Shown here in pieces: positions 1 through 13,193 of a stretch of 14,535 nucleotides of DNA. Positions within the stretch are counted from its first letter, which is position 1; every line of letters begins with the position of its first letter. The position numbers and the translations under genes are program-made. The stretch spans positions 1-14,535 of IMG/VR virus record IMGVR_UViG_2534681705_000018; one strand, given 5' to 3'. The DNA comes from a virus. Taxonomy: Duplodnaviria > Heunggongvirae > Uroviricota > Caudoviricetes. The notes beneath the pieces were generated by a model. The model saw nothing but the letters and a program-made list of their open reading frames with translations. It had not been told where the DNA came from and made no database searches.

Positions 1-78
1 ATAAATCTCACTCTCGTTTTTTTTGATATCAAAATCATCTGTTTCAAAATCTTCCTCGTACTCAAAATGATCAGCCAT
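1..78 (-). CDS. 5' end of an unknown protein-coding gene running off the left edge; N-terminus MADHFEYEEDFETDDFDIKKNESEIY is strongly acidic
   Basis: ATG at 78-76 (minus) with AGAGGAG Shine-Dalgarno 6-7 nt upstream; frame stays open to position 1. Too short for the ORF track, so this is my own read. Confidence 0.3.
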   Translation of the reverse strand, partial: MADHFEYEEDFETDDFDIKKNESEIY

Positions 79-318
79 TTTTAACTCCTCTGGATAAATT
101 AAATCACAAATTTTTGTATTATAAATAACCGCATAAGCCAAATTATTTGAGATTAATAAAACATCACCAACTTCAATATCAACAAGACTTCTGTAACATG
201 TTTTACTAAATCCAATTACAAAATGAATGGACCAATATAATGATTTTTTGTCTAACACTGGAGCGTTTCCGTATTGGCAGACTGTGACTTTATCTAACCA
301 AAGATTCAATTCCCCTGT

Positions 319-684
319 TCATATTCTTATTAGTGGTTGAGCAGGGCTCAATACTCCATCAAATACTTTACCTACGTGCAAACGATTATATTTTAGTTCA
401 GGATGCTTTAGATTTAACGGGGAACTGGATAAACTGAGCCATTCCCCTATTAACCTTTCCGTTTCTGGCATTAAAGCCATCCCAGCGAGCTCAGATGAAA
501 TTAAGGGAAATATTTCTCCAAGCAATACCCATCCAGACCAGCTGCCACTCTCTTCTGCTATCGGTAACCATTTAGCACTAAATTCGGGCATTAATAATGC
601 AACATCTTCGCCATTTTCTTTCCAATTTTGAAAAGTGGTTTCAAACGTATGAGTGTTTCGATTTACTTTCCTCAGACCGAACAT
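319..684 (-). CDS. hypothetical 121-aa Trp-rich protein
   Basis: ORF-track ORF; ATG at 684 with AAGGA about 11 nt upstream; protein-like composition; no recognisable motif. Confidence 0.45.
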   Translation of the reverse strand: MFGLRKVNRNTHTFETTFQNWKENGEDVALLMPEFSAKWLPIAEESGSWSGWVLLGEIFPLISSELAGMALMPETERLIGEWLSLSSSPLNLKHPELKYNRLHVGKVFDGVLSPAQPLIRI

Positions 685-815
685 TAACTTTCATCCTTCT
701 GATCGTTTTCGAATTTGCTTTCATTTTCTTGCTCCTCATAAGGCTGATGTCGTTGTCCTTGTCGTTCATCTTGCTCAGTCAATACCCAACGTTGTGCTGT
801 AACTCATTATGAAAA

Positions 816-2426
816 CTATTTAATTCCCTCATCATTGATAAGGTTGGACATCTCTTTCAACATGAGAGTCATTGAAGCTTTCGACCAATTTAGCGGAATG
901 ATAGGGCTTGGCGCTTCATGCAAAGTTCCCGACTTGTGGATATAGTTATAGCTTTCGGGAAGTGCCATTTCAGGTACACTCCTGCCATTTGCACCAATCA
1001 TATTCTCGCCTGTTATTTGGGCCAATGATCTATTCATAAATTGCACTGAGTCATTCAAATACTCTTCCTTTCTTGATTCTTTATAAACAATTGCTGCTGA
1101 TTTTGCATACCATGAGTCAAAAAACCATTCTGCTTCTGTTGATGGAATGAAGCTCTTTTCTCTTTTCGCATGTGAATTTTGATCGGTATCGGTTTTAATA
1201 TCATTGAACCAAAAATTTGCCGACTGATAATTATCCTTCTCGTATCTTTTTATACCATACGGACCTGCTAGTTTTTTAACTATTTTTAGAACCTGCTCTT
1301 TTCTTCTGGTGTTTATCTTTGCAAGATTTGCAGGATAAATAACATTAAGTAAAGCCGCATCGGCTTCTCTGTAATGTTTATCTTTTTCCAGATAACCTGG
1401 GGATTCTCCCCCTAAATCAAGCTGTAACGTTATTCTTTCATAACCTTTATCTATGAGGTGGTTCAACCTCGTTGTTGAAAGAGGTTCATCCAGTTCATTG
1501 GCTTTAGCTTCGCGTAGTAAATCAGAGACAAAAACAGAGTCTTTCTTCGAGAGTAAGTTCGACAAACGTTCCAGTCCAGAGGTCACCAGTGCAACGGAAG
1601 ATGTGTTTAATCGGGCATCTTCTTCCCATGCTCCGGAATCTTCCATAACATAGAAATTGGCTTTATCCAGATAAGCAATCAGCAGCGCAACCGATTTTAA
1701 TCGGTCACCTTTTTGCCAATCTTCAGCGTTAATTGTATCAGTGTCGATTGCTTGTATAAGGAGATCAAGATAAAGACCTAACGCATCATTTTGTTTATGG
1801 TTCCACAGCTGCGGCTTGCCTTCTTCCTGCACATCTGCCATCACGGGGGAGTTGCTGTCAAATCGGATATGCACAACATTCATTTGCCCGGGAACTCCAT
1901 CCAGTCGTTTGGGGTTGCTAATGACGTCCTGCATTCGCTTAATCTGGTCGGGCGTAGACATATAATCCCACAGGGTGAGCAGAACCTTTTTTGCGGCTAC
2001 ACTATTTCCCTGATCTGATACTAATGCCATATAGCCCCATAAACTATCCCTCAGCCAGACAGCATCATAGTGGGTTTCTGCCGCTGTTTTGTCATCTTCG
2101 AAAGTAGAAGCAAGAATAAACGTTCCCCAGGGTTTCTCCGTCAACGTTAACTTTCGTGTGTTTTCTGTTAATGTTAGCAATCCTTGAATTTCGTCTTTGG
2201 TATAGTGGCTCTTTATTTCATTTTGTAATTTGGCTGAGTGAATCAAAAGACGATAATTAGGATACTTATCTGGATTTAACGATAAATAACTTTTATCTGT
2301 TGCTGCCCCCGTGGAATTAAGAATGTTAAATACAGATTCACTCGTCACTTCTGCCCCTGTCGCCTGGCATGTGCCGCACGAAAATATACCAGCGAGCAGA
2401 AGAGTTAATGCAGATTTCCCTTTCAT
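816..2426 (-). CDS. secreted glycoside hydrolase family 15 (glucoamylase-like) enzyme with N-terminal signal peptide
   Basis: ORF 816..2468; likely start at MKGKSALTLLLAGIFSCGTCQATG (ATG 2426; alternative ATG 2438). Matches recalled GH15 signatures: VWLRDSLWG (WxRDS), GKPQLWNHKQNDALG (GxPQ...D.AL) and SGAWEED (general-acid WEE). AT-rich gene unlike the rest of the window. Confidence 0.7.
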   Translation of the reverse strand: MKGKSALTLLLAGIFSCGTCQATGAEVTSESVFNILNSTGAATDKSYLSLNPDKYPNYRLLIHSAKLQNEIKSHYTKDEIQGLLTLTENTRKLTLTEKPWGTFILASTFEDDKTAAETHYDAVWLRDSLWGYMALVSDQGNSVAAKKVLLTLWDYMSTPDQIKRMQDVISNPKRLDGVPGQMNVVHIRFDSNSPVMADVQEEGKPQLWNHKQNDALGLYLDLLIQAIDTDTINAEDWQKGDRLKSVALLIAYLDKANFYVMEDSGAWEEDARLNTSSVALVTSGLERLSNLLSKKDSVFVSDLLREAKANELDEPLSTTRLNHLIDKGYERITLQLDLGGESPGYLEKDKHYREADAALLNVIYPANLAKINTRRKEQVLKIVKKLAGPYGIKRYEKDNYQSANFWFNDIKTDTDQNSHAKREKSFIPSTEAEWFFDSWYAKSAAIVYKESRKEEYLNDSVQFMNRSLAQITGENMIGANGRSVPEMALPESYNYIHKSGTLHEAPSPIIPLNWSKASMTLMLKEMSNLINDEGIK

Positions 2427-2734
2427 AAAATATTCCATCAATCGTTTGTTAAAAGCGTAGATAACCACTTATTTAACAACTTGAAAATAAGGTGTTTTAC
2501 CTGGGTTGTTACAAAAGGATTGCATTGCGTAAACGCTTTTTATTTACAACAAAATGGGGAAGTATTACGGCGATTGCGAAAAGTCTGAAGCGATTGAATT
2601 AAGATAATATAGAAAATCAGATACAGCAAAAATGGCAGATTGATCAGGTGAAGATAAATTGGAGCGGCGAAGGGAACAACACAACAAGCCACAAGACCAG
2701 TAATAAAGGCGCATTCGCGAGTTCTAAAATAAAT

Positions 2735-2758
2735 TCTATACACATTTCTATACACATT
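2735..2758. repeat. perfect tandem direct repeat TCTATACACATT x2
   Basis: Read directly at 2735-2746 and 2747-2758. Confidence 0.8.
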
Positions 2759-2770
2759 TATCACTCGCTT

Positions 2771-2850
2771 GGGGATTACACATCCCCTGTTAACCGTGAT
2801 CAAGCTGGTGGATGATCACGGATAAACCGATATGGGAATCCCCATATCGG
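2771..2850. promoter_or_regulatory. three consecutive perfect dyad symmetries: GGGGAT-N5-ATCCCC (2771-2787), CCGTGATCA-N10-TGATCACGG (2794-2821), CCGATATGGG-N4-CCCATATCGG (2827-2850)
   Basis: Inverted repeats read directly; non-coding; sits where composition changes from AT-rich cargo to element-like DNA. Confidence 0.6.
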
Positions 2851-2855
2851 CATCG

Positions 2856-2967
2856 CGTAGTTAATCGTAGTGGCTACCGTAGTAGCCTCCGTAGTTGAGT
2901 AGCAGGATGTAACCTGCCAGGAAGGAAATGATCGTGACTCGCCGTGACATGGCGTGATTAATCGTGA
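2856..2967. repeat. helically phased short direct repeats: CGTAGT x4 (2856, 2866, 2878, 2890) with embedded palindrome GGCTAC-cgta-GTAGCC, then CGTGA x4 at exact 10-bp spacing (2933, 2943, 2953, 2963)
   Basis: Read directly; the 10-12 bp phasing puts the motifs on one face of the helix, typical of multimeric protein-binding sites (integrase arm sites, TerS sites, iterons). Confidence 0.6.
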
Positions 2968-3000
2968 CACCAAACAAAAATCCTTACCCGTAGGCTTAAT

Positions 3001-3023
3001 GTAAGGCTTGGCTGTAGCCTTAC
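3001..3023. other. perfect 8-bp inverted repeat GTAAGGCT-N7-AGCCTTAC
   Basis: Read directly. Confidence 0.6.
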
Positions 3024-3035
3024 CGAACGCGCCGC

Positions 3036-3215
3036 TCACCGTCGCGGCCTGTCCGGTTTCCGCCACTGATACGGCCTCACATCATCATGCTGGTGGCGCT
3101 CCTGTTGCAGCACAACGGAAACAGGCGCTGAACACCTGTTAATTTTGCTTGCTGGTTGTTTGATTCCGGCAATGCTGCGGATCATCTCCAGCAAATCGGC
3201 TTCGGTGATGGTCAT
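3036..3215 (-). CDS. possible small ORF (59 aa, MTITEADLLEMIRSIAGIKQ...), unknown function
   Basis: ATG at 3215 with AAGGTG 7 nt upstream; stop at 3036-3038; not in the ORF track (under 60 aa); low support. Confidence 0.25.
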   Translation of the reverse strand: MTITEADLLEMIRSIAGIKQPASKINRCSAPVSVVLQQERHQHDDVRPYQWRKPDRPRR

Positions 3216-3245
3216 GATTTACACCTTAGGAAATCTTAGGGGGCT

Positions 3246-3518
3246 GGTTGACACTTTCCGGCTTAAGACCTTAATAAATCTTAATATCGTAGGTTGACAC
3301 ACTTGACACTTTTTCGGGAAAAACCTTAACAAAACTTAACCATCCCTGGCATTTCTAAGCATGGCAACTTGACACTTTTCGCTATTTTTTCGGCTTTTTG
3401 ACGTGGTAAATCTGGCGAAAGGCCAGTAATGGCGTGGCTTACAGCGAGGTTGACACTTTTTCGCGTTCAGAGTGTAAAGTGTCAACCTGGCAAGCTGCTC
3501 AACTTGACACTTTTTGAG
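3246..3518. repeat. array of six direct copies (one inverted) of about 14 bp, (G/C)TTGACACTTTT(T)CG
   Basis: TTGACAC at 3248, 3294, 3303, 3369, 3450, 3504 and inverted GTGTCAA at 3479; non-coding, directly 3' of the HTH gene at 3520-4047. Confidence 0.7.
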
Positions 3519-3519
3519 G

Positions 3520-4047
3520 TCATTGATGGCCTGATTTTTCCCACTCAGCCAGGGCGTTTAGTCCGGCTTCACTCCAGTTATCCAGCTCATCGGGACAATC
3601 ACCTGCAACATAGCAGAGCTCACAACGCAGCATACGAATTGCCAGCCTGGCATTTTCCCGAAAATCATACTGCTCAAAGTAATATTGCCCAGCATAATCC
3701 TCAAGGCAGATAGCACCATCATCAAGAAATTGCACTTCACAGCATAATTCCCCGGCTGCATCCTGCACACGCTGCTGTATGTCATCGTCCGTTACTGGTG
3801 CAGGGATTTTACCGTCTCTGGCCTTAACTGCTTTCCAGAACTCGCCCCACGTCATTTCCAGCGTTCTCTCTGGCCACATTTCAGAAACGGGGTTTTTTCC
3901 CTGTGCTGGTGGGCTGTTCCGCTGCTCTGTCGCTTCCACATCAATTTTTTTGCCAGACATGATCACTTCGCCTTTCTCGATCCAGTCGTAAACTGTCTGG
4001 CGGCTTACGCCTTTGTGTTTGGCATATTCTGCCTTGCTCATCAGCAT
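3520..4047 (-). CDS. HTH DNA-binding protein, 175 aa; N-terminus resembles lambda Nu1/terminase-small-subunit winged HTH; Cys-rich C-terminus; candidate packaging-redirecting or regulatory protein
   Basis: N-terminal KAEYAKHKGVSRQTVYDWIEKGE parallels recalled Nu1 KKQLADIFGASIRTIQNWQEQGMPV; C-terminal RCELCYVAGDC; ATG 4047 (or 4041) follows the upstream stop by 6 nt with GGGTGAG Shine-Dalgarno. Confidence 0.6.
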   Translation of the reverse strand: MLMSKAEYAKHKGVSRQTVYDWIEKGEVIMSGKKIDVEATEQRNSPPAQGKNPVSEMWPERTLEMTWGEFWKAVKARDGKIPAPVTDDDIQQRVQDAAGELCCEVQFLDDGAICLEDYAGQYYFEQYDFRENARLAIRMLRCELCYVAGDCPDELDNWSEAGLNALAEWEKSGHQ

Positions 4048-4053
4048 TATGAC

Positions 4054-4725
4054 TCACCCTTCTTTTTCCAGTTGAGCCAGCCGCCCGGATATTTCTTCCA
4101 GTTTTTCCAGGGCTGGCTTGCAGGCCGCATCAATAACATCCCGGACCATTCCGGCAAGCTGCTCTTCTGCTGTCGGCGTTGTTACTTCCACACCCGATGG
4201 TTTCCCTCCCTTATCCCATACACCCAGCGGTACGAGGGCAACGTGATCGATAAGAAATGGCGTACCCTCAATGACAAAATTGTCCTCGCCCATTACATCA
4301 GGAACTTCTGCCCCACCGGACGCACCACAAAACACAACCGACGGGCTGGTGGATACCTCCCCCCGGGCTTTCTGGATGTAATCGATGATTTCCTGCCCGT
4401 AAATCCGGCATACGCCCCACACCTCGTCATCGCGAATATACGGCAACATAACGGTGCCAATAATGCGCGACCGTTCGCCCACGTCTTCAATGGTTTTGCC
4501 TTCGGGATGGTCGATAATGACGGGTACTCCGGCGCAACGTTCCAGGAACTGCGGATTGAGATAAGTTTGCGGTGAACGCCAGACAAATTCTTTTTCTTCG
4601 GCGCGGTAGGCCATTCCGGTTCCTGTGATACGCAGGTTAACCAGCCACATGTTGGAGAACTGATAAGGCGACGGTAGCTGACCGTCCCGAATCTGCTTCG
4701 CCGCCTCAATTTCTGTTAAAAGCAT
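4054..4725 (-). CDS. hypothetical 223-aa protein with coiled-coil C-terminus
   Basis: ORF-track ORF; same operon and strand as neighbours; no motif recognised. Confidence 0.55.
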   Translation of the reverse strand: MLLTEIEAAKQIRDGQLPSPYQFSNMWLVNLRITGTGMAYRAEEKEFVWRSPQTYLNPQFLERCAGVPVIIDHPEGKTIEDVGERSRIIGTVMLPYIRDDEVWGVCRIYGQEIIDYIQKARGEVSTSPSVVFCGASGGAEVPDVMGEDNFVIEGTPFLIDHVALVPLGVWDKGGKPSGVEVTTPTAEEQLAGMVRDVIDAACKPALEKLEEISGRLAQLEKEG

Positions 4726-4789
4726 AATGTTATCCGGTTATAAGCAATAAGCCCCGCCAAATCCGGCAGGGCTGAACTCAGCACGTTTT

Positions 4790-5368
4790 TCATGCCCCCG
4801 CGAGGCTTGCAGTGTTAATTTTGACCAGGCGACGGGGAGGGATTTTGAAGGCGTTCAGCCAGACGTTCGGATCGCCCTGATATTCAGTAATACGACGACC
4901 AGCTTCATCCATTCTTACGGTTTTACCCAAATGGCCCGGCGTGTTTTCCACGGCCCACTGAGCACTTTCCTGAGCAGCCTTGTAAATCTGATCTTCCAGC
5001 ACCGCCAGCGTTGCAGAATCTGAAACGGAACGAATATCCACATCACTGAATTTTTTAGCCAGCTTCTGTGCGCCAATTAATGCACGCTTGCGGTAATCCA
5101 TCGACTTTTCACCAGCAAACGGGGCCGGAGCTCGACGGCCCATATTGCTGTATGCGGAATCCGCTTTAGCCTGGGCTTCTGCCAGTGAGGATTCATCTTC
5201 GACTGACGCGACGATGTTTTGATTAGCGTTATCCTCTTTTATGAAATCCTGTGCGGGGATCGCATTCAGAATTTCGATAATCTCCTGCGGAGTGCTGCCC
5301 TGCGACTCTGACAGAGCGTTAACCACCTCCATCAGTTTTAATCGCAAATCTTCTTTGCTTGCTGGCAT
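4790..5368 (-). CDS. hypothetical 192-aa protein
   Basis: ORF 4790..5377 opens on GTG; in-frame ATG at 5368 has a better Shine-Dalgarno (GAGAGGTGG). Confidence 0.55.
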   Translation of the reverse strand: MPASKEDLRLKLMEVVNALSESQGSTPQEIIEILNAIPAQDFIKEDNANQNIVASVEDESSLAEAQAKADSAYSNMGRRAPAPFAGEKSMDYRKRALIGAQKLAKKFSDVDIRSVSDSATLAVLEDQIYKAAQESAQWAVENTPGHLGKTVRMDEAGRRITEYQGDPNVWLNAFKIPPRRLVKINTASLAGA

Positions 5369-5407
5369 TTTTACCACCTCTCTTTTTTCACCAAAAAATC
5401 ACGACCA

Positions 5408-5587
5408 TCAGGCCGGACGTTCTACGGGATAAAGCGCCCGCTGCATTAAACGCCGGGCGACCTCATGAATGCTCGGAGCAATCCCCAGCGGAGAATTGCG
5501 GCGTTCCTCGTCCTGGATGCGCTGTAATGCTTCAATCTGATCACGAGCGAGTAAAACGGGTTTCACGCTGGCTTTTCTCATAGTCAT
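5408..5587 (-). CDS. small 59-aa protein (MTMRKASVKPVLLARDQIEALQRI...), possible small DNA-binding regulator
   Basis: ATG at 5587 with AGGAGA Shine-Dalgarno; first gene after the tandem terminators; assignment is tentative. Confidence 0.45.
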   Translation of the reverse strand: MTMRKASVKPVLLARDQIEALQRIQDEERRNSPLGIAPSIHEVARRLMQRALYPVERPA

Positions 5588-5605
5588 ATCTCCTGAACAA
5601 AACAA

Positions 5606-5700
5606 TGATTATGATTGCACAAACTGAAATGACGATCTACATCGTTGCAATTTATGAAACGATAACGCATGATGATCGCGTTCTTCCCATTGACTTCAAT
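5606..5700 (-). promoter_or_regulatory. promoter/operator region for the 5587->3520 operon with repeated ACGAT/ATCGT dyads and a CATAAT -10-like hexamer
   Basis: Between terminators and the first gene of the next operon; dyads GACGATctacATCGT and AACGC-N8-GCGTT read directly. Confidence 0.4.
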
Positions 5701-5704
5701 CACC

Positions 5705-5745
5705 TGAAAAACAAAGCCCGCAACACTTCTGGCTGCGGGCTTTTT
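5705..5745 (-). terminator. second, bidirectional intrinsic terminator
   Basis: 8-bp stem AGCCCGCA/TGCGGGCT (5715-5722, 5734-5741), 11-nt loop, T-runs on both sides. Confidence 0.6.
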
Positions 5746-5753
5746 ACTGGCAC

Positions 5754-5777
5754 AAAAAAGCCGGGAAAAATCCCGGC
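5754..5777 (-). terminator. Rho-independent terminator right after the PerC-like gene
   Basis: 7-bp GC stem GCCGGGA/TCCCGGC with 4-nt loop, followed on the minus strand by a 6-T run. Confidence 0.7.
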
Positions 5778-5782
5778 CTCCG

Positions 5783-6070
5783 TCACTGACTGCAATTTTT
5801 CGATCCAGGGTATTTCCTGAATGCCTTACCATTGGGCTGATGTAATCCCATCCCGGCATGTGCCCGGCTGATGGTTTCGCGCATCTCCCCGAAATTATCC
5901 TGCCGTGCTGGTGGGCGTGCTGCCTTGCGGATACATTCCGCGCGACGTTTTGCCGCCTGTTCCCGTGCCTTGTCATCATTCGCCAGCATGATGACCTCAG
6001 CCCACCGCGCCGCCGCTCTCCGGTACAGACCACGCGCTTCCAGTGCTTCCGCTTTGCTGTCGTGAATCAT
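5783..6070 (-). CDS. PerC/Pch-family transcriptional activator-like protein (95 aa)
   Basis: AEALEARGLYRRAAARWAEVIM matches the recalled PerC-family core (AEELE.KGLWRRAAARWLEVM); ATGA start/stop overlap with the upstream gene. Confidence 0.55.
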   Translation of the reverse strand: MIHDSKAEALEARGLYRRAAARWAEVIMLANDDKAREQAAKRRAECIRKAARPPARQDNFGEMRETISRAHAGMGLHQPNGKAFRKYPGSKNCSQ

Positions 6071-6609
6071 GCGCCTGTTTTCTCCCTGGCTGCCCGGCGC
6101 TGACGTTTGCGCTTCTCATTCAGCGCTACCAGCCGCGTTTCTGCGTCCTGTTGTTCCTGTGGTGTCACCTCGCCGCACGGCTGGCCTTTCAGGTCGTAGC
6201 GTACCCCACCAGCCATTAAGGCGCGGTAATAGCGCGGACACTGCGCATAAGATGCCAGCGTCGCACGTAATGCCCCTGGCCCGAATGCCAGCCCCCTGAC
6301 GGCGAGATCCTGCATCAGGTCGTCGAATATCCCCACCTTAAGCGGCTTCGGTGCTTCCCGGCTGAATAATTCAGGCCACAACTCAGTGAGGCGGTTAACG
6401 CGCCTGCGGTTTTTGCGCTGGCGCTTGGTCATATGCCGCCACGGTGTCGCCCCTGTGGGCTTCTGCTGCGCTTTCTGGTTACCGGGCATCACTTTATGCG
6501 CCGACGTGGTTTTATCCTGCTCCTGTGCCGCCTGCGTCGTTTTCTGCGGCGTGCCATAAATGCCTTTCGGTTTTCTGTTAATGGTCAGCTTAGTCATGCT
6601 TTGCCCCAT
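6067..6609 (-). CDS. ProQ/FinO-domain RNA-binding protein with a basic N-terminal extension
   Basis: LTELWPELFSREAPKPLKVGIFDDLMQDL ... YYRALMAGGVRYDLKGQPCGEVTPQEQQDAETRL parallels recalled ProQ N-terminal domain ([22 protein letters not shown] ... RVDLDGNPCGEL); likely true start ATG 6597. Confidence 0.65.
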   Translation of the reverse strand: MGQSMTKLTINRKPKGIYGTPQKTTQAAQEQDKTTSAHKVMPGNQKAQQKPTGATPWRHMTKRQRKNRRRVNRLTELWPELFSREAPKPLKVGIFDDLMQDLAVRGLAFGPGALRATLASYAQCPRYYRALMAGGVRYDLKGQPCGEVTPQEQQDAETRLVALNEKRKRQRRAAREKTGA

Positions 6610-6937
6610 CGTTTTTACTGATTATTTCATGCCCGGAACTTTCATCTACCGGATACCACGCAAATGATCCAGGTTCATCAGAAAGAATGAATTTTGTGTT
6701 TGGCAAATACATGCATTCGTAAAAACCATCTTCCTGATGATACGGTGCCATTCCATACTCACCAGTAAGAATCGGTAATATTTCAGAATAAATTTCTGAA
6801 TCACCAGAATAAAACACATCACAAATCGCCCATGCTGCAATCGGACTATACCAGTCGTTGCCATTATCATTCCTGAATTTTGCCCACCAACCCTGAACCG
6901 CTGGCGAAATATTTTTGGGTATAGCTTCAAGAAACAT
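6590..6937 (-). CDS. hypothetical 115-aa Trp/Tyr-rich protein, first gene of the ProQ/PerC operon
   Basis: ATG 6937 with strong AAGGGGG Shine-Dalgarno; 3' end overlaps ProQ-like start. Confidence 0.55.
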   Translation of the reverse strand: MFLEAIPKNISPAVQGWWAKFRNDNGNDWYSPIAAWAICDVFYSGDSEIYSEILPILTGEYGMAPYHQEDGFYECMYLPNTKFILSDEPGSFAWYPVDESSGHEIISKNDGAKHD

Positions 6938-6987
6938 ACAACCCCCTTTGCAACTCTATTTCTATAATTTCGTGATAAAAATTCCAA

Positions 6988-7290
6988 TTATTCACACTAT
7001 TCCATTTTGATTGTGAACAGTCGTGAATAGTTAGTGAACAGTTTTTTAATAACTGTTCACTATGTTTTTTAGTTTAAAATCATATGGTTATTTTGTTTCA
7101 GTGAACAGTTGAACAGTTACCCCCTATAGAATTTAATTTGCAGTGAAAATGATTCACTGTTACAAGTTACAATGCGTTTTAAAAGTTTTAGCCGAAACTG
7201 TTCACGGCGTTCATTTCGTCGATGAATCCAGTAATGACGCAGCTTTTAGAGGTGAACACTACTGTTCACCACTGTTCACCACTGTTCACT
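6988..7290. repeat. replication-origin-like iteron region: about 10 direct and inverted TGTTCAC(C) copies, an AT-rich spacer, and a perfect tandem ACTGTTCACC x3
   Basis: Direct copies at 7054, 7199, 7263, 7273, 7283; inverted at 7013, 7034, 7101, 7252; palindrome TAGTGAACAGTT/AACTGTTCACTA (7032-7062). TGTTCACC is the P4 alpha-protein type I iteron as I recall; location just 3' of the primase gene. Confidence 0.65.
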
Positions 7291-9058
7291 TTTCATGGAT
7301 TTTTGGCACAGCGGGTAACCATTCATTAGCACTGTCAGCCAGCTCCATGTTGTAGCGCATTCCGACATTGGTCTTTGCCTTCTTATACTCAGCCCCATAT
7401 TCTTTCATCACTTTTGGGAAATCTTTGCCAAAATTAGTTAGATTTAATGGCTTATCGAAACCATAAGCATCCATATATGCAAGATATGCATGGTAAAGAT
7501 AAATTCGAGGGGCTCTTGGATATATATTCAGGTTTCCCATGAACATTCCTACAGCTTCACCAAGTTCGACAATATGGTTACAAAAAGCATATAGCGGATC
7601 AGTATGGCGTTTTACTTCCATTGCTTCTTCACCATCACGTTGCTCGAGCAGTAATGTTCTTGCTTTTTCGGGATCTGAAAAATTTACCAACAGCCTACGG
7701 ACTATTACCGGAATTTCCGCTGCAATTTTTTTGGGTAAACATGTGTCCTTGTTTTCTTCCGCTATCGGATTATTGAACTGAAAAATAACCCTACGGCGTG
7801 AAATACCTCCCGCTCTTTCTGTAAAAACCATCGGTTTATTATTTGTTATCAAAACAACTGAGCGTAAGACAGTGGTGTATCTTTTTTCATATTTCGGGTT
7901 AATTTGCAGAGGATCCCCACCTGTTATAGCTTTAATACCATTACCTTCACCAAAATATTTAGGTTGGTCCGGTAAAATAATCAGACTTTTACCAACTAGT
8001 TGCTCACGTCCACCAGCATCATCTAACGCTTTCATATCACTGCCTGCGGTGTTCTGCTCACCCGCCAACATTCTGGCAATTTGAGTAAACATACTTTTAC
8101 CACTTCCACCTTCGCCAGTTGCTTCAATGAATAATTGCCAGTCGTAGCGATTAGCCAAAACCATAAACAGAGCAGCACATATCCGCTTCATCTTTGATGA
8201 ATCGTATCCTGCTGCATGTGACAGCCAACGATGAAAATGGGGCGCATGGTCATGAATATTTTCACCAGGCGCAGGTGGCGTATAATAAATTCCATTATGC
8301 GAAGTGATCCAGTGCTCTGGTGAATGAGGTAAAAATCTACCACTTGTTATGTCATAAACTCCATTTTCAAAAGGTATTATGGTGTCACTCTGTTCTCTCA
8401 TTACGGGTACAGATATTTTTAAAGCATCAACCGCATTACTAATTGCCCGCTTACTGAAATTTGTCTTGTTTTTTTCGTAAATTGATACCATTTTACGACT
8501 CAACTCCATATCAGATATTTTTTCCCACACTCCAGAACAGTATGCATAAGCAAAATTGTTACCAGGGTGAACAGCTATTTCCTCAAAGCATTCAGCCAAA
8601 AGTGAAGCTCGCTCGTTATCCGCCATTCTGGAAAGAGAGATTTTGTGTTTTTTCTCAGTCCTTCCTGACAGAATATCCCCGCGCTCTGCCTGTTCGCGGA
8701 TCCGTTGCAGGTAATCGCGCCAGTTCTCCGGTTCCCGGTCGGTGATGCCTTTGTATAATTTCGCCTCCTGTACGCCAGCCAGCGCCAGCTTTTCAGCGAT
8801 AGCATTGATCTGGATTGGTTCGATCTCCCCCGCGAGATAGACACGCGCAAAGCGGCGTTTCTCGTCAATAATGCGGATATTCGCCAGGTCTGCCAGTTGC
8901 TTTGGCCCCAGGTAAACAGGTGGTACGTTATCGCCGTGTTTTCGTCCTTCGCTTTCAATCCAGTGTTGAGCATGGGAGTAAGCGTCCGTCCCGGCAAAAA
9001 TGATTACCTCGGTGAATTTATCCTTCGGCTGATATTTTAAATTCGGTGCGTTTTTCAC
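7286..9058 (-). CDS. P4-family primase / D5-like SF3 helicase replication protein (590 aa)
   Basis: Walker A GEGGSGKS in mid-protein; overall organisation of phage/plasmid primase family; GTG start at 9058 overlaps upstream stop (GTGA). Confidence 0.8.
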   Translation of the reverse strand: MKNAPNLKYQPKDKFTEVIIFAGTDAYSHAQHWIESEGRKHGDNVPPVYLGPKQLADLANIRIIDEKRRFARVYLAGEIEPIQINAIAEKLALAGVQEAKLYKGITDREPENWRDYLQRIREQAERGDILSGRTEKKHKISLSRMADNERASLLAECFEEIAVHPGNNFAYAYCSGVWEKISDMELSRKMVSIYEKNKTNFSKRAISNAVDALKISVPVMREQSDTIIPFENGVYDITSGRFLPHSPEHWITSHNGIYYTPPAPGENIHDHAPHFHRWLSHAAGYDSSKMKRICAALFMVLANRYDWQLFIEATGEGGSGKSMFTQIARMLAGEQNTAGSDMKALDDAGGREQLVGKSLIILPDQPKYFGEGNGIKAITGGDPLQINPKYEKRYTTVLRSVVLITNNKPMVFTERAGGISRRRVIFQFNNPIAEENKDTCLPKKIAAEIPVIVRRLLVNFSDPEKARTLLLEQRDGEEAMEVKRHTDPLYAFCNHIVELGEAVGMFMGNLNIYPRAPRIYLYHAYLAYMDAYGFDKPLNLTNFGKDFPKVMKEYGAEYKKAKTNVGMRYNMELADSANEWLPAVPKIHEK

Positions 9059-9345
9059 TTCTTACCTCCCGCAACCAACATTGCCCGGATTTTTTTAATA
9101 TTCGTGGCTGCACGTCTCGCCACCGCCTGTTGTTTGTTTTCCACCAGAATAAAATCACGCTCAAACTGACGGCGCGGCATTACGCAGTCATATTCGTAAG
9201 CCTCACGGCGGTAGGTGATATTGCCTGGCGTAACGTGACGAATAACCACTCGTCCCCCACGTCTGGTGTCGCGGTAAATATCTCCGTGTCTGATTTCAGG
9301 CCGAGCGGGGCCGCTGGCAGTAAAGCCAGAATTTTTCTTTTTCAT
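9055..9345 (-). CDS. hypothetical 96-aa basic protein, coupled to the primase gene
   Basis: ATG 9345 with AGGAAA upstream; stop overlaps primase start. Confidence 0.5.
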   Translation of the reverse strand: MKKKNSGFTASGPARPEIRHGDIYRDTRRGGRVVIRHVTPGNITYRREAYEYDCVMPRRQFERDFILVENKQQAVARRAATNIKKIRAMLVAGGKK

Positions 9346-9349
9346 GGTT

Positions 9350-9550
9350 TTATTTTCCTGTCAGCAGTTCCGGTTTTATTTCCGCACGAATACAGAGTTC
9401 AGAAAAAAATTCAGGAGAACCAACAATCTCATTACTTTTCAGTCGGCATTGTGATTTCACTTTTCCTTTATCCAGGTAAACCAGTATGCGTCCGGTGAAA
9501 TCATCTGGCGCACTCAGGGTAATTGTCATTGTTGCTTGCTGATTATCCAT
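9350..9550 (-). CDS. small 66-aa protein with one copy of an FTGxxLVxxxxGxV motif; paralog of the gene at 9543-9908
   Basis: PDDFTGRILVYLDKGKV; start overlaps upstream stop by 8 nt. Confidence 0.5.
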   Translation of the reverse strand: MDNQQATMTITLSAPDDFTGRILVYLDKGKVKSQCRLKSNEIVGSPEFFSELCIRAEIKPELLTGK

Positions 9551-9908
9551 GATTCACCCCCTGAATAACCTGATAACCGCAACTGGTCAGCAATTCGATA
9601 AATTCCGGCAATGTGCCGAAACAGTAATCATCACGCAGACGTTCGCGGGATACTTCAACGCCGTTTTCGTAGTGACTCACCATGCGTCCGGTAAAATGCA
9701 GATCATCATCGTGATGGCACGTTAACGGCTTAATCAGTCGCGCACGTTCTGCCAGTTCCAGCAATGCTTCAACGCTTCCGGCAATTGCACCATCCGGCAG
9801 GTTGTAATTACGCACTATGCGCCCGTTCTCCACATGGACCAGTAGCTGCCCGGTAAATTTCTCGTCAAACTGAATGCGGTTAAGGTCGGTAAGTGACAGG
9901 TTAATCAT
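9543..9908 (-). CDS. 121-aa protein carrying two tandem copies of the same small domain
   Basis: FDEKFTGQLLVHVENGRIV and LHFTGRMVSHYENGVEV; ATG 9908 overlaps upstream stop. Confidence 0.55.
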   Translation of the reverse strand: MINLSLTDLNRIQFDEKFTGQLLVHVENGRIVRNYNLPDGAIAGSVEALLELAERARLIKPLTCHHDDDLHFTGRMVSHYENGVEVSRERLRDDYCFGTLPEFIELLTSCGYQVIQGVNHG

Positions 9909-10104
9909 GGCGTACCTCCTGACGAATACGGGCGGCGAATACCATCACGCAGCCATCAGGAGATTGCTGGCGTGCTTCCTGTTCGCTGGTGGCCTCGATG
10001 TGAATCACGCGCGGTTGTGCCGTGCTCAGAGCGATAAAACGCCAGATGTATTTATTCAGGTTGTGCGAGTCCCGCCCTTGCGGGTGTGTGGTATGATTTC
10101 TCAT
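9901..10104 (-). CDS. small 67-aa protein, first gene of the leftward operon; tentatively Icd/Kil-like
   Basis: ATG 10104 with GAGGT Shine-Dalgarno; IWRFIALSTAQ...VMVFAARIRQEV resembles my recollection of Icd-like proteins (unverified); in frame with the C-terminus of the 402-aa track ORF. Confidence 0.4.
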   Translation of the reverse strand: MRNHTTHPQGRDSHNLNKYIWRFIALSTAQPRVIHIEATSEQEARQQSPDGCVMVFAARIRQEVRHD

Positions 10105-10297
10105 AGCTACCTCGATAATCTTGCTATCGTTGGTGGTTAGAAGCTCTGCGAGTGGTAACGACACTTGCGGGGCTTTGCCTTTAAGGTGCAAGTCACCTTT
10201 GAGGGTTATGCTACTTTTAGGTGACTTGCACTTCAAGCCTTTTTTTATTTTTTTTTCTACGTATACTGAACGCCACCTAACAGTAAGGAGGCCAGTA
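10105..10297. promoter_or_regulatory. divergent promoter/operator region with 13-bp inverted repeat AGGTGCAAGTCACCT (10184-10198) / AGGTGACTTGCAC (10219-10231) and a T-rich tract (10241-10257)
   Basis: Read directly; lies between the leftward operon and a rightward gene with AAGGAGG Shine-Dalgarno; candidate -35/-10 (TTGAAG-N17-TAGCAT) on the minus strand overlaps the repeat. Confidence 0.55.
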
Positions 10298-10477
10298 ATG
10301 CCAACGGGTACAACCAACAACAAATCACAACAAAAAACGGCTAGAATCCCTCTAGAAGTTTTAAGCGAAATGAATTTGGTCAAAGAGGAAAACGAAACAG
10401 ACGCGCAGTTTATCGTTACAGCCATGCGTGGCGAGATCAAACGCCGCCAGCGCCGCAAGGCCAAAGAACAGGAGTAA
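10298..10477 (+). CDS. small 59-aa basic protein, possibly ribbon-helix-helix-like; candidate element repressor
   Basis: Near-consensus Shine-Dalgarno AAGGAGG 6 nt before ATG 10298; strand-helix-helix pattern (ARIPLEV / LSEMNLVKEEN / AQFIVTAMRGEIKRR); only clear plus-strand gene in the element. Confidence 0.5.
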   Translation: MPTGTTNNKSQQKTARIPLEVLSEMNLVKEENETDAQFIVTAMRGEIKRRQRRKAKEQE

Positions 10478-10534
10478 CCATCACCAGCGCCGTGGTGTGA
10501 GGAACTACGGTGCATCGTTTTACAGGGCAGCGCC

Positions 10535-10714
10535 ATGACCAACAAAGAATCAACCAAAACACCATCACCAACTCGTAAGAGACGACGCAAAAATATAGCG
10601 CATGAACATGAATCAGAAAGATTCGCACCTTGTTCGTTTGCTCTTGAGAAATTCCTTAAAGAGCACAGGAAAAAGCTCTCGTTGCAAACCTTGGAACGAA
10701 CCAAATCTGACTGA
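10535..10714 (+). CDS. possible 59-aa Lys/Arg-rich ORF downstream of the RHH-like gene
   Basis: ATG 10535, weak Shine-Dalgarno; followed by a plus-strand terminator; not in ORF track. Confidence 0.3.
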   Translation: MTNKESTKTPSPTRKRRRKNIAHEHESERFAPCSFALEKFLKEHRKKLSLQTLERTKSD

Positions 10715-11109
10715 TCACATTGCCCACCAGCCGCAAATGTGGCATTGTTGGTGATGCGTTCAAGTATGTAGCTTTTCCACTGGCGGCTCTCTGCGGTCGC
10801 CTTTGTTTTATCCAGAACGAAATCAGACATCAGATTGATCAGCACCTGGCGACCTGACAAAATCGCATCAGTCGCGCCACCAGCAAAATTTTTTGCTTTC
10901 CGGACAGCGTGGCCAACGATATTTTGCAGCAAAATATTCTGCATTTCTGGCGTGCTGTGGCGACGGTGATCAGCGCCTTCACATTGAACGAACTTGTCGC
11001 TAAAATTCACCCACATAGCAAACATCGCGGTGCTGTAGGTAATTCGTTCACAAAGGCGCTCCGGCAACGGGGCGCTTTCTCTTTTTGTAACGGTCAGAGC
11101 GTTACACAT
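10715..11109 (-). CDS. N-terminal part of the 402-aa track ORF (9901..11109); plausible gene of unknown function whose true 3' end is unresolved
   Basis: ATG 11109 overlaps the AntA stop (ATGTGTAA); first ~130 residues protein-like, but the middle of the 402-aa frame looks non-coding and is antisense to the plus-strand module. Confidence 0.3.
10782..10809 (+). terminator. candidate Rho-independent terminator for the rightward transcript
   Basis: GGCGGC-tctctgc-GGTCGCC stem-loop followed by TTTGTTTT. Confidence 0.4.
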
Positions 11110-11950
11110 GGCTGTTTTCCTCCATGCGACGGGCTAACCAACGCTGCGAAAGACGAATTAATTCAGCCTTCCGCTGGTGGTAGTCCTGGCCTAACTCAAT
11201 CAGCGTGATATTGCTCTGCTCAAGGTAAGAAAGGTGCTCAAGCTGCAACGTGCTCATGTGGTCGCGTGGTTCGCCTGTAATGCCGTTCGCCAGTGCCCAC
11301 TGTTTTGCAGTCATGCCACCCAGCACGATACGCGCCAGCATGTTCGCTTCCGTGGTGTAGTGGTGCTGGAGTGTGTTTTTACCCAGTTCAGCCCGGTACG
11401 CCTCCAGCGCGGCACACATTGGCTTAAAGTAGCTGGCAACTGTGATACGGGCTTTCAGTTCCCGGCGTAACGCTGCGGAACGCACTGGCGCTACCTTGTG
11501 TAGCTCCTCCTCGCATTTGATAAAGTACTGGCGAACGGCGCGGCCCTGTTCGGTACGTTCGACCATCGCCAGTTCTTTCGCCATGTTCGTGGAGATCAAA
11601 TAGTCTTCACTGCGACGATCACCGCCGCGCTTTGTTGTCCAATCAAAATCAAACTGTTCAATATTTACACTTTGGTTCCCCCGTTTCGGGGAATCAAAGT
11701 ACAAATTTTCTACAACTTCAAAATCCACGCCATTTTTAAATCCGTACTCATCAATACGTCCTTTAATCCAGGTAGTGAAATCACGGCCTACCCCGAGCGC
11801 CTTATGCAACGCTCTGGCGCTAACAATATTGGTTTCACGCCCGCCAATAACGCCGGAAATAACCGGGATAATTTCGCCAAAATTTTGCAGATTCTGGTTT
11901 TCAGGCCGAACGAAGCCCTGCCCCTGTACGGGCGTTTTTCGCAGTTTCAT
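11102..11950 (-). CDS. phage antirepressor, AntA/AntB-type N-terminal domain (282 aa)
   Basis: IPVISGVIGGRETNIVSARALHKALGVGRDFTTWIKGRIDEYGF matches recalled AntA domain pattern; AGGAG Shine-Dalgarno before ATG 11950. Confidence 0.7.
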   Translation of the reverse strand: MKLRKTPVQGQGFVRPENQNLQNFGEIIPVISGVIGGRETNIVSARALHKALGVGRDFTTWIKGRIDEYGFKNGVDFEVVENLYFDSPKRGNQSVNIEQFDFDWTTKRGGDRRSEDYLISTNMAKELAMVERTEQGRAVRQYFIKCEEELHKVAPVRSAALRRELKARITVASYFKPMCAALEAYRAELGKNTLQHHYTTEANMLARIVLGGMTAKQWALANGITGEPRDHMSTLQLEHLSYLEQSNITLIELGQDYHQRKAELIRLSQRWLARRMEENSHV

Positions 11951-12028
11951 AAAAACTCCTGCTATCGAATTAAGTTACTTTTATTTGCTGGTGGATAGCT
12001 GGGGGCTTCTGGCCCCGTAGCCATTTAA

Positions 12029-12226
12029 TCAGGTAGCTGTTCCGCGTGATTCAGCAATACGCTGATTAATCCACTCGTCAATTTCACTCTCAACGAAAGC
12101 AATCGCTCGCGAGCCAATTTTAACTGATGCAGGAAATTTACCTTGCCCCATAAGGCGATAAATCCATGCCTTGCTATATCCAGTTCTACGCTGAACTTCC
12201 GTTAAACGAATAAGCGTATTTGACAT
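12029..12226 (-). CDS. alpA: AlpA/Vis-family phage transcriptional regulator or excisionase-like HTH protein (65 aa)
   Basis: IRLTEVQRRTGYSKAWIYRLMGQGKFPASVKIGSRAIAFVESEIDEWI is the typical AlpA-family winged HTH; GAGGT Shine-Dalgarno; family-level assignment only. Confidence 0.8.
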   Translation of the reverse strand: MSNTLIRLTEVQRRTGYSKAWIYRLMGQGKFPASVKIGSRAIAFVESEIDEWINQRIAESRGTAT

Positions 12227-12294
12227 ATATTTACCTCATAACGTCTACTCAATTTGACGAGGTAATCATGGCACAGAAATAACGAATATTTTCA

Positions 12295-12444
12295 TACCCT
12301 CAGGCCTAATGGTAATCGGGAATATTTTTACCCTAAGGGTAATAGTAAAATTGATGGGAAAGCATACAAAAATACCCTAAGGGTGAGGTCTGATTACCCT
12401 TAGGGTGAGACGCGAACAAAACATGAGATACCACTAGGGTAAGG
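12295..12444. promoter_or_regulatory. array of five copies of palindromic motif TACCCT(A/T)AGGGT(A/G) immediately upstream of alpA
   Basis: Copies at 12295 (degenerate), 12328-12343, 12373-12385, 12394-12410, 12429-12444; each an inverted repeat TTACCC-N3-GGGTAA. Confidence 0.7.
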
Positions 12445-12446
12445 CT

Positions 12447-13193
12447 TCATCGTTTGATAGGACAGGCGACAAGCTCAATAGATGCGGCCTGTCGGGAGGT
12501 AAAACCTCGTTTTTCAAGCTCAGTAGTAATCGCGCCCTGGTTTCCCCTGGTGGCGCGCTCATTTTCCGGATCGTAATTGGCCCACTCTCTGTTTCTAATC
12601 TCGATAGCCAGATACAATGGGTCATCATCTCTGTATTTATTTAATAGAATTGGACGTTCGCTTTCGAGTTTGCGGATTTGCTCTTTAAGTGAAGAAATTT
12701 CCGCAAGTAACACTTCAATATTCTGTTCATCATCCAGAAACTCATTATCAACCACATCAGAAGTTGGTAGAGTTATTTCACTTAATGGTAAAAATAAATC
12801 AATGCCTATTTTCTCTGCAAATTCTTTAAGTTCTGCACGACGAAACCCATGCTTATCAAAAAGGCTTGCCGACCATCTTACATCACAATTTTGAAAAGGT
12901 GCGAATAATGCTATAGGCACACTATTTCTTTCACGAATAACTTCCAGGAGGTCTGTTAAAGTAGGGGCACTATTATATTGATTGGAAAGATCGACATATG
13001 TTGATTCAATAGTACCGGCAATACCTTGCTTAACCCATTCAGGAAGTTCAATCGCACATTCTTTCAAGTAAAGAAAATCTGCAATCTGTGAATAACTAAC
13101 ATGCGGTTGATGTAATTGAATACGAGTTATCAACTCCCTCAGGCTAATAAACTCCCACTCCCTTGCTTTAAGCACTTCGGCAATATCAATCAT
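12447..13193 (-). CDS. hypothetical 248-aa protein between integrase and alpA, coiled-coil near C-terminus
   Basis: Track ORF 12447..13274 opens on GTG; ATG 13193 has GAGGTG Shine-Dalgarno 7 nt upstream; no motif recognised. Confidence 0.55.
   Translation of the reverse strand: MIDIAEVLKAREWEFISLRELITRIQLHQPHVSYSQIADFLYLKECAIELPEWVKQGIAGTIESTYVDLSNQYNSAPTLTDLLEVIRERNSVPIALFAPFQNCDVRWSASLFDKHGFRRAELKEFAEKIGIDLFLPLSEITLPTSDVVDNEFLDDEQNIEVLLAEISSLKEQIRKLESERPILLNKYRDDDPLYLAIEIRNREWANYDPENERATRGNQGAITTELEKRGFTSRQAASIELVACPIKR

Follow-up and report, generated by a model that had tools for sequence, protein, structure and literature searches.

The glyU-proximal gene of the E. coli ETT2 island, pkgA (ygeQ), encodes a divergent GH15-clade protein with a Sec-type N-terminus

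The open reading frame at 816-2426 (minus strand) of the window, by which we mean the whole 14,535-nucleotide stretch that was analysed, is pkgA (ygeQ), with which the ETT2 type III secretion island of E. coli ends on its glyU side. In the reading that we favour and consider moderately probable, this gene encodes a Sec-exported GH15-clade enzyme, predicted to be an inverting exo-glycosidase, that is inherited together with ETT2-like islands. pkgA is already known and annotated and is not a new discovery, and as a known gene its remaining interest is modest. Its published names are ECs3736/ECs3737 in O157 Sakai, where it is annotated as two ORFs (PMC3977695), EC042_3075 in EAEC 042 and ygeQ (b2863) in K-12 (PMC2808357, PMC3977695). 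Passages in these two papers, citing Pallen 2003, note the resemblance of the product to glucoamylase and phosphorylase kinase and speculate that it is an effector of ETT2.

Identity and setting of the gene

The ORF as delimited mechanically (816-2468, minus strand, 550 codons) is a real gene, and its 5' limit is a GTG at 2468. RefSeq places the start at the ATG at 2426, which gives a product of 536 aa and is the likely start, since a typical signal peptide then begins at residue 1. DNA identity to E. coli GH15/YgeQ genes in RefSeq that lie beside ETT2 genes is 99-99.9%. Gene order in related loci places pkgA between the eiv/epa type III secretion system (T3SS) genes and tRNA glyU, in DNA of low G+C content. 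The features of the locus are as follows.

1-811, minus strand: ETT2 remnant, consisting of an epaO (SpaO/YscQ-like) pseudogene and a short eivJ fragment, equivalent to 3001-3812 of comparison locus L002 and identified from its annotations
803-811, no strand: junction left by a deletion of 3.7 kb in ETT2, where the two flanks have 9 bp in common (blastn against L002)
816-2426, minus strand: pkgA/ygeQ coding sequence, 536 aa plus stop, from the RefSeq start
2427-2659, no strand: native 234-bp ygeQ-glyU spacer, where the pkgA promoter presumably lies and which remains collinear as far as the tRNA with sequence of the E. coli 042 type
2660-2676, minus strand: 17-nt 3' remnant of tRNA-Gly glyU with one base missing, the distal attachment-site repeat of the adjoining element (alignment with comparison locus L008)
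2677-14535, minus strand: glyU-integrated P4/PICI-like satellite element, recognised by gene content and GC and separate from the pkgA unit

Most E. coli carry ETT2, the function of which is a matter of continuing debate. In the E. coli loci inspected its erosion was widespread, and the present copy is no exception. By blastn against L002, positions 1-811 of the window correspond to 3001-3812 and positions 803-2854 to 7546-9597. The 3.7-kb deletion between them took out the eivJ to eivF remnants together with a GhoT/OrtT-like gene; 5 bp separate the end of its junction from the stop codon of pkgA, which is left intact. A scan of positions 600-2900 gave no promoter-like match at 2427-2676, upstream of pkgA, and the five matches found elsewhere were not above shuffled expectation.

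The original prediction described the gene as AT-rich cargo, acquired separately, beside a mobile element. Such an element does adjoin it, with genes for an HTH protein, DUF2213, PerC, ProQ/FinO, a D5-type primase, AntA and, at 13321-14535, a P4-type integrase. It also holds an int-alpA RNA motif at 13210-13277, the sole Rfam match in the window, with none in or near pkgA. The contrast in composition was confirmed as well, with 40.8% GC in the pkgA ORF against 47.6% in the element (2678-14535). Although adjacency and this difference in GC could speak for cargo, the glyU 3' remnant is the end of the element and the native spacer is intact up to 2659, so pkgA lies outside the element. L008 has an annotated tRNA-Gly 234 bp from ygeQ; no intact tRNA was found in the window, and ARAGORN detected none in L001-L003 either. 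pkgA stands directly beside glyU in an element-free strain, and in other strains different elements occupy glyU next to it. Carriage by the element is thereby ruled out.

Separate acquisition as an island of its own fares no better. The GC content of pkgA fits that of ETT2, which is 35.8% across window positions 1-815, including the remnant, and 36.9% in the literature (PMC3977695), so the gene was not acquired separately from ETT2. In E. albertii the gene order is the same and pkgA is in the same place. Taken together, we give cargo or separate acquisition next to no probability. The part of the horizontal-acquisition claim that stands is that pkgA lies in AT-rich, horizontally acquired DNA, which is supported.

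Catalytic motifs, fold and export signal

The features of the coding sequence that bear on function are listed below.

2361-2426, minus strand: predicted Sec-type signal peptide, residues 1-22, MKGKSALTLLLAGIFSCGTCQA (sequence features and hydropathy)
2376-2387, minus strand: candidate lipobox IFSC (Cys17), which fits a relaxed pattern only
2043-2075, minus strand: GH15 conserved region 1, THYDAVWLRDS, in which Y120, W124, R126 and D127 are the predicted subsite -1 residues (conservation and alignment)
1776-1820, minus strand: GH15 conserved region 2, GKPQLWNHKQNDALG (invariance and alignment)
1620-1628, minus strand: WEE motif (W267, E268, E269), invariant and aligned, with E268 as the predicted general acid
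945-962, minus strand: LPESYN, of which P490, E491 and S492 are invariant, with E491 as the predicted general base

The GH15 signatures named in the original prediction are all present, as WLRDS (residues 124-128, window 2043-2057), GKPQ (residues 203-206) and WEE. They are not chance matches, since W124, R126, D127, Q206, W267, E268 and E269 do not vary among 36 homologues with 38-76% identity; the invariant set comprises Y120, W124, R126, D127, W267, E268, E269 and E491 and, within region 2, Q206, W208, H210, Q212, N213, D214 and A215. In an hhalign comparison with a hand-entered sequence of A. niger glucoamylase, which gave E=0.011 and a formal probability that was low, Y120/W124/R126/D127 aligned to Y48/W52/R54/D55, region 2 to W120..D126 and WEE to W178-E179-E180. 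W208 of region 2 thereby pairs with Trp120, a further subsite -1 residue of the A. niger enzyme. Region 1 also aligned to WVRD of PhK alpha and region 2 to the W-H-Q-DA motif of PhK alpha/beta. From motif resemblance only, we infer that E491 is equivalent to glucoamylase E400 (SEQYD).

A GH15 hit in an HMM search was obtained narrowly. Pfam PF00723 matched residues 94-401 marginally, at E=5.9e-5 and 22.6 bits against a cut-off of 22 bits; other members of the PkgA family scored 16.6-55.6 bits and one member scored nothing. The NCBIfam GH15-type model TIGR01577 gave PkgA 15.4 bits, far under its cut-off of 820.7 bits. Only 852 representative clusters came within reach of the family profile, and a sequence search of the PDB with the family found PhK alpha/beta only, without reaching the classical GH15 enzymes. 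In the AF2 model (pLDDT 90.5), the predicted (alpha/alpha)6-barrel is unambiguously most similar to GH15 structures when compared with the PDB using Foldseek. We conclude that PkgA is a divergent GH15-clade (alpha/alpha)6-barrel glycoside hydrolase-like protein to which the PhK alpha/beta N-terminal domains are closest by sequence. Its specificity could differ from that of classical GH15 enzymes, because no catalytic activity is known for PhK alpha/beta, the only proteins that sequence reached in the PDB.

The predicted signal peptide also held up to inspection. The N-terminus reads MKGK, then comes a hydrophobic core of 11 residues, and a candidate site for SPase I lies between CQA and T; Kyte-Doolittle hydropathy reaches its maximum of 2.26 at residues 7-17, and AF2 pLDDT is low at residues 1-24. 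Comparable signals were seen on inspection in most Gram-negative homologues. A lipid anchor is less clear-cut. The reference pattern, [LVI][ASTVI][GAS]C as the last residues of a signal peptide, is fitted by IFSC in its relaxed version only, and Cys17 is kept in E. albertii (VLAC) and missing from the closer relatives P0004-P0011. Many distant homologues have clear lipoboxes.

These features suggest how the protein may work. The Sec signal peptide would carry PkgA across the inner membrane, after which it would be either soluble in the periplasm, following cleavage after CQA, or lipid-anchored at Cys17. It would then act as an inverting, exo-acting glycosidase, with E268 as general acid and E491 as general base, while Y120, W124, R126 and D127 would bind a glucose at the non-reducing end in subsite -1. 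Alpha-glucosides or alpha-glucan oligosaccharides, such as maltodextrin or glycogen fragments and isomalto- and related disaccharides, would be the likeliest substrates. Starch, dextran and trehalose-type compounds, as originally put forward, are reasonable candidates.

Distribution, selection and the loci of relatives

The original prediction took such enzymes to be uncommon in enterobacterial accessory regions, which was not borne out for this gene. The ORF was matched, always on the chromosome, in 3987 of 5426 complete E. coli genomes and was near full length (at least 80% coverage) in 2969 of them, and E. albertii has it too. A tblastn search of plasmids (PLSDB) returned only three chromosome-sized records labelled E. 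coli (4.8-4.9 Mb) and one 26%-identical match from Embleya. The T3SS ATPase gene eivC was found in only 1287 genomes, so that at least 1682 genomes hold a near-full-length pkgA and no T3SS ATPase gene. Among E. coli copies the dN/dS of pkgA was about 0.24, and against E. albertii, with dS close to saturation, it was 0.085. These values indicate purifying selection, and pkgA is kept under it in many E. coli that lack the T3SS machinery, including the strain examined here. Selection is not universal, since 45% of the 5426 genomes are without a near-full-length copy.

The truncation of pkgA in K-12-type strains, the partial copies in some other strains and the wide erosion of ETT2 might suggest that its product is decaying along with the island, or that it is a non-catalytic, carbohydrate-binding pseudo-enzyme like PhK alpha/beta. 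The latter are its closest relatives by sequence and are not known to have hydrolase activity. However, the catalytic and subsite residues are all invariant down to 38% identity, the dN/dS values are low, and the 90%-identity cluster that P0001 (536 aa) represents has 13,903 member sequences. We therefore regard a relic or pseudo-enzyme as improbable.

In every contig examined that was long enough (loci L009, L011, L092, L094, L095, L096, L003 and L085), close relatives (44-76% identity) are located within or close to T3SS gene sets of the SPI-1/ETT2 kind. Their position with respect to the T3SS genes varies, and they are usually followed by a gene for a GhoT/OrtT-like small membrane protein. 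The loci of distant relatives have a different character. None of 79 contained T3SS genes, whereas a MalK-type ABC ATPase was present in 13, a sugar-binding protein plus permeases in six and a GH14 beta-amylase in five; the Francisella and Clostridiales relatives have MFS sugar transporters in the locus. The papers on ETT2 and pkgA that were consulted, among them PMC2808357 and PMC3977695, contained no mention of the T3SS/GhoT linkage, the Sec signals or the distant sugar loci.

This pattern bears on the idea that ETT2 injects PkgA as a type III effector into host cells, where it would perturb glycogen metabolism, a speculation attributed to Pallen 2003 in the passages that discuss it (PMC2808357, PMC3977695). 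The gene stands at the end of a T3SS island, its close relatives are tied to T3SS gene sets, and its nearest solved relatives by sequence are eukaryotic (PhK alpha/beta). Against this, a type III effector is expected to have a non-cleaved, non-hydrophobic N-terminus that is free of a Sec signal, while residues 1-22 of PkgA appear to be classically Sec-type, with a charged n-region and the hydrophobic core, after which comes either a cleavage site of small residues or a lipobox. A Sec-type signal was present in every T3SS-linked relative whose N-terminus was inspected, which again argues against injection. Retention of the gene in genomes without the ATPase gene, and the association of distant relatives with sugar uptake instead of T3SS genes, point the same way, and we think injection very unlikely. 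pkgA is the only enzyme-like gene of ETT2 known to have been proposed as an effector, and we know of no ETT2-encoded effector shown so far. With the Sec signal, constraint in the absence of a T3SS and remote relatives in sugar-uptake loci, the hypothesis shifts from an injected effector to an exported glycosidase.

An exported protein could still serve the secretion island. PkgA might be an envelope-remodelling accessory, a periplasmic or outer-membrane-anchored glycosidase whose target would be a glycan of the cell's own envelope, for instance periplasmic glucans or alpha-glucosyl residues in the LPS core, much as the island's lytic transglycosylase IagB acts on peptidoglycan. Sec export and the possible lipobox are in keeping with such a role, as is the conserved inheritance of the gene together with ETT2-like islands, which encode further Sec-dependent helpers such as IagB and InvH, and one Planctomycetota homologue, situated among MdoG (OpgG), GT2 and PF10091 genes, hints at a periplasmic-glucan substrate. 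That linkage was seen in a single genome, however, with no OPG-type gene family among the recurrent neighbour clusters, and pkgA is constrained where the T3SS is gone. Moreover, GH15 enzymes are specific for alpha-glucosides, whereas the periplasmic glucans of E. coli are beta-linked. On balance this role seems unlikely.

Under the preferred reading, an exported glycosidase would travel within ETT2-like islands, normally with the GhoT/OrtT-like gene after it. In a speculative reading, to which we attach a low likelihood, PkgA is neither injected nor simply a nutritional enzyme but belongs to a conserved two-gene module that moves with ETT2/SPI-1-family T3SS islands across Enterobacterales and consists of a Sec-exported, possibly lipid-anchored GH15-like glycosidase and, after it, a GhoT/OrtT-like membrane peptide. 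The site of action would be the envelope or the cell surface. There the enzyme would remodel a glycan to suit the secretion machine or, released with the aid of the small membrane protein, attack host or dietary alpha-glucans such as glycogen.

Comparison with known systems

The gene is the same as the known E. coli PkgA/YgeQ, with DNA identity of 98-99.9%, in the same place between the ETT2 T3SS genes and glyU and with the same GH15 family annotation. The present copy is full length, unlike the truncated K-12 copy and the two-ORF annotation of Sakai, and is flanked by the 3.7-kb ETT2 deletion on one side and the glyU-integrated satellite on the other.

PhK alpha/beta (PDB 8jfk) occur in the eukaryotic cytosol, exceed 1000 aa in length and form part of a kinase holoenzyme, whereas PkgA is bacterial, has 536 aa and carries a Sec-type signal; the aligned stretches of PhK alpha/beta read WER where PkgA keeps WEE. 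The PkgA subfamily is the closest bacterial relative of the GH15-like domains of PhK alpha/beta, so the biochemical activity of PkgA would inform the long-standing enigma of these domains. The GH15 isomaltose glucohydrolase of Kribbella flavida (PDB 5z3a/7c25), a 371-residue chain with 15% identity to PkgA, lacks the N-terminal beta/alpha extension of about 90 residues, the insertions and the signal peptide of PkgA, and shared specificity cannot be assumed. Identity to the classical glucoamylases and glucodextranase (A. niger 3eqa/1dog, Clostridium 1lf6, Arthrobacter 1ulv) is 10-14%, and PkgA differs from them in having neither a starch-binding domain nor a large N-terminal beta-sandwich. Legionella pneumophila GamA is a type II-secreted, eukaryotic-type classical GH15 glucoamylase of demonstrated activity, and as a pathogen-encoded, Sec-exported GH15 enzyme it may serve as a parallel for a factor that is exported to degrade glycogen or starch.

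The pkgA gene and its position beside the glyU element

The 550-codon ORF beside the mobile element is the known pkgA/ygeQ gene of ETT2, the degenerate second type III secretion (T3SS) island of E. coli. A megablast search of 5,426 complete E. coli genomes returned 99-99.9% identical genes labelled 'glycoside hydrolase family 15 protein' or 'protein YgeQ', chromosomal in every case and adjoining ETT2 genes. In RefSeq annotation the identical gene begins with the ATG at position 2426 (536 aa), which gives the protein an N-terminal signal peptide of typical form, MKGKSALTLLLAGIFSCGTCQA. The GH15 signatures of the original prediction are all present together with this signal peptide: WLRDS (WxRDS, residues 124-128), GKPQ (GxPQ, 203-206) and WEE (267-269). 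Its proposed HMM search narrowly cleared the Pfam GH15 threshold (E=5.9e-5, 22.6 bits, curated cut-off 22); NCBIfam models gave no informative match. A real gene for a GH15-like, predicted exported protein in AT-rich foreign DNA was correctly recognized, but it is widely distributed and already named, neither novel nor rare cargo.

Features of the window
803-811: junction of an ETT2 deletion, 9 bp common to both flanks
816..2468, minus strand: pkgA ORF
2660-2676: TGGAGC-GGCGAAGGGAA, glyU 3'-end match with one base missing
2677-14535: glyU-integrated P4/PICI-like satellite with AntA antirepressor, D5-type primase-helicase, ProQ/FinO-family, DUF2213 and HTH proteins
5783-6070: PerC-family activator of the satellite
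13210-13277, minus strand: Rfam int-alpA RNA motif
13321-14535: P4-type integrase of the satellite

In an element-free strain, 234 bp separate the pkgA start from tRNA-Gly glyU, with actS and xdhABC beyond it; the gene order in E. albertii is the same (actS, GH15, GhoT/OrtT-like, eivF, eivG onwards). Collinearity between the window and the element-free strain spans pkgA, the entire native spacer and 17-18 nt of the glyU 3' end, where homology ends. The glyU match is the partial tRNA repeat that elements integrated at a tRNA usually leave at their far end, and the intact copy of glyU must be outside the window. Since the native spacer and the glyU remnant separate pkgA from the element, and other strains carry different elements or none at this site, pkgA lies outside the element. 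The element-free strain, the intact spacer and the remnant refute its status as cargo of the satellite. The predicted contrast in composition was confirmed (40.8% GC for the ORF versus 47.6% for 2678-14535), but separate acquisition does not follow, the low GC being shared with ETT2; window 1-815 has 35.8% and the upstream spacer 34.7%.

The whole window is covered at 80% or more in only 3 of the 5,426 genomes. In EPEC and EHEC, LEE T3SS genes are under the control of PerC-family regulators, which makes the satellite's place beside ETT2 curious. The int-alpA motif, just downstream of the integrase gene, scored 47 bits (gathering score 35.8). On the other side of pkgA, a 3.7-kb deletion relative to strain 08-00022, whose junction ends 5 bp short of the stop codon of pkgA, has removed eivJ..eivF remnants and the GhoT/OrtT-like gene; strain WGI31CT has the same junction.

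Fold, with predicted catalytic residues and export

Structure comparison placed PkgA among GH15-type enzymes and the phosphorylase kinase (PhK) regulatory subunits, and a Foldseek search was concordant.

Structure comparison scores for PkgA
Kribbella isomaltose glucohydrolase 5z3a: 30.1
PhK alpha and beta: 27.8
Dextran dextrinase: 26.1
Bacterial glucoamylase 1lf6: 24.8
A. niger glucoamylase: 23.6
Glucodextranase: 22.9
Methylmannose polysaccharide hydrolase (rank 8): 22.1
Rest, except two more glucoamylases: 19.8 or below

By sequence, PhK alpha/beta were the sole relatives detectable in the PDB (E=0.008 with a single sequence, 1e-7 with a profile). Y120, W124, R126, D127, W208, W267, E268, E269 and E491 are invariant across 36 homologues of 38-76% identity. 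In hhalign, conserved regions 1-3 align with A. niger glucoamylase Y48/W52/R54/D55, W120..D126 and W178-E179-E180, the numbering for that enzyme being provisional. On the strength of the fold matches, invariant residues and this alignment we accept membership of the GH15 clade, in which the PkgA family, with just 852 representative clusters out of the 1.84 billion proteins searched, forms a deep branch of small size. PkgA would be an inverting exo-glycosidase with E268 as acid and E491 as base, the latter assigned by motif resemblance only.

Sec export is a well supported prediction, based on an N-terminal segment with two lysines, a hydrophobic core of 11 residues (hydropathy peak 2.26) and small amino acids at -3/-1 (CQA|T). 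Alternatively, PkgA could be a candidate lipoprotein with IFSC as its lipobox, anchored at Cys17. E. albertii shares this Cys (VLAC), and many of the distant relatives are clearly lipoproteins, but the relatives next in closeness show ordinary SPase I sites and lack the Cys. The signal is absent from Gram-positive and several Elusimicrobiota homologues.

Distribution and selection in E. coli

Matches among 5,426 genomes (any; at least 80% coverage)
pkgA ORF: 3,987; 2,969
eprH: 3,105; 3,033
eivC (T3SS ATPase): 1,305; 1,287

These counts contradict the expectation that such enzymes are uncommon, and the suggested presence/absence check showed that the gene is not core either. At least 1,682 genomes combine a near-full-length pkgA with absence of the T3SS ATPase gene; K-12-type strains retain the N-terminal part alone, about 70% of the gene. 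Nei-Gojobori dN/dS is about 0.24 between E. coli alleles and 0.085 against E. albertii, where dS is near saturation. The gene is common and constrained, and its invariant catalytic residues and low dN/dS make it unlikely that PkgA is a pseudo-enzyme or a decaying relic.

The E. albertii comparison (8001-9617 of its locus, L009, against window 816-2426) gave 76% amino-acid identity and a dS of about 1.9. By general expectation, orthologues of sister species would be far less divergent. The difference suggests that the alleles split long ago or that ETT2 variants were acquired independently.

Relatives of PkgA and its possible role

Close relatives (44-76% identity) occur in seven further contexts, each with ETT2/SPI-1-type genes within 10 kb and in differing arrangements.

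L002, L009 and the seven further contexts, with ghoT-like gene positions
L002 (strain 08-00022): ghoT-like 7313-7492
L009 (E. albertii): ghoT-like 9687-9866
L003 (Y. enterocolitica): ghoT-like (about 11696) downstream of GH15; SipD-family gene at 10 kb
L011: GH15 adjoins prgH-prgK-orgA; ParA/SopB and SopD/pentapeptide effector on the contig
L085: decayed GH15 copy adjoining decayed T3SS cluster
L092: hilA-like and iagB at 9 kb
L094: invH, ghoT-like (3144-3317), GH15
L095: ghoT-like (about 8307) downstream of GH15; invF-like and TPR_3 chaperone close by
L096: GH15, ghoT-like (5502-5669), invH-like, hilA-like, iagB ... prgH; TraI relaxase alongside

A further relative (P0035 at L098, 44% identity) has just a weak EspG-family match and an AraC-type regulator nearby. 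In E. coli, E. albertii, Y. enterocolitica and two relatives from metagenomes, GH15 is followed 46-115 bp downstream by a same-strand GhoT/OrtT-family gene (ECs3735, ydcX-like) for a small membrane protein of 55-59 aa; a third metagenomic contig, L094, has this gene upstream of GH15. This suggests a conserved two-gene unit.

In the Y. enterocolitica contigs, two conserved divergently oriented genes (L003 5748-9440; 848 aa and 326-332 aa), neither with a Pfam match, precede GH15, and an invasin-like gene lies further upstream. CP182557.1, a record labelled Shigella flexneri SFBU0723, contains at L085 10001-21583 a pkgA-like sequence that is divergent (49% identity in its best segment) and has no ORF of 100 aa or more on its strand; most tblastn matches of the T3SS set have 32-57% identity to ETT2-type components; both look pseudogenised. 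The species label may be wrong, since the record is its own GTDB species representative.

Distant relatives came from Commensalibacter, Bdellovibrionota, Planctomycetota, Omnitrophota, Francisella, cyanobacteria and others. Not one of 79 loci of these relatives gave a T3SS hit; MalK-type ABC ATPases occurred in 13, a sugar-binding protein with permeases in six, GH14 beta-amylase in five, and MFS sugar transporters at Francisella and Clostridiales XIII loci. Given these neighbours, the family overall looks like one of carbohydrate catabolism with an alpha-glucan flavour, of which one enterobacterial clade is a fixture of ETT2-like islands. In a Planctomycetota MAG (DAIOFH010000009.1, L097 3619-11611), a 47%-identical homologue adjoins MdoG (OpgG), a 688-aa GT2 and a PF10091 'Glycoamylase' protein, a periplasmic-glucan-like cluster, in this one genome only.

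A review table lists ECs3736/pkgA as 'phosphorylase kinase and glucoamylase' and the protein is 'speculated to be a ETT2 effector' with host glycogen metabolism as its target (PMC3977695); the part of the EAEC 042 genome paper treating EC042_3075 repeats this, crediting Pallen 2003 (PMC2808357). Conserved linkage to T3SS islands and homology to PhK favour an effector, but the predicted Sec signal is conserved across the island-linked relatives inspected, the gene is kept in T3SS-null genomes, and the wider ecology of the family points elsewhere. An envelope-remodelling helper with a role like that of IagB is possible, if thinly supported. The best supported explanation is that PkgA would be a GH15-like exo-glycosidase, exported by Sec and most likely active on alpha-glucosides or on fragments of alpha-glucans, its gene inherited with ETT2 yet kept independently of the T3SS. 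The new content is modest and comprises three points not found in the literature consulted, which did not cover Pallen 2003 and Ren 2004: the sugar-uptake context of remote relatives, the recurrent pairing of pkgA with a ghoT-like gene within ETT2-like islands, and the Sec signal as an argument against effector status.
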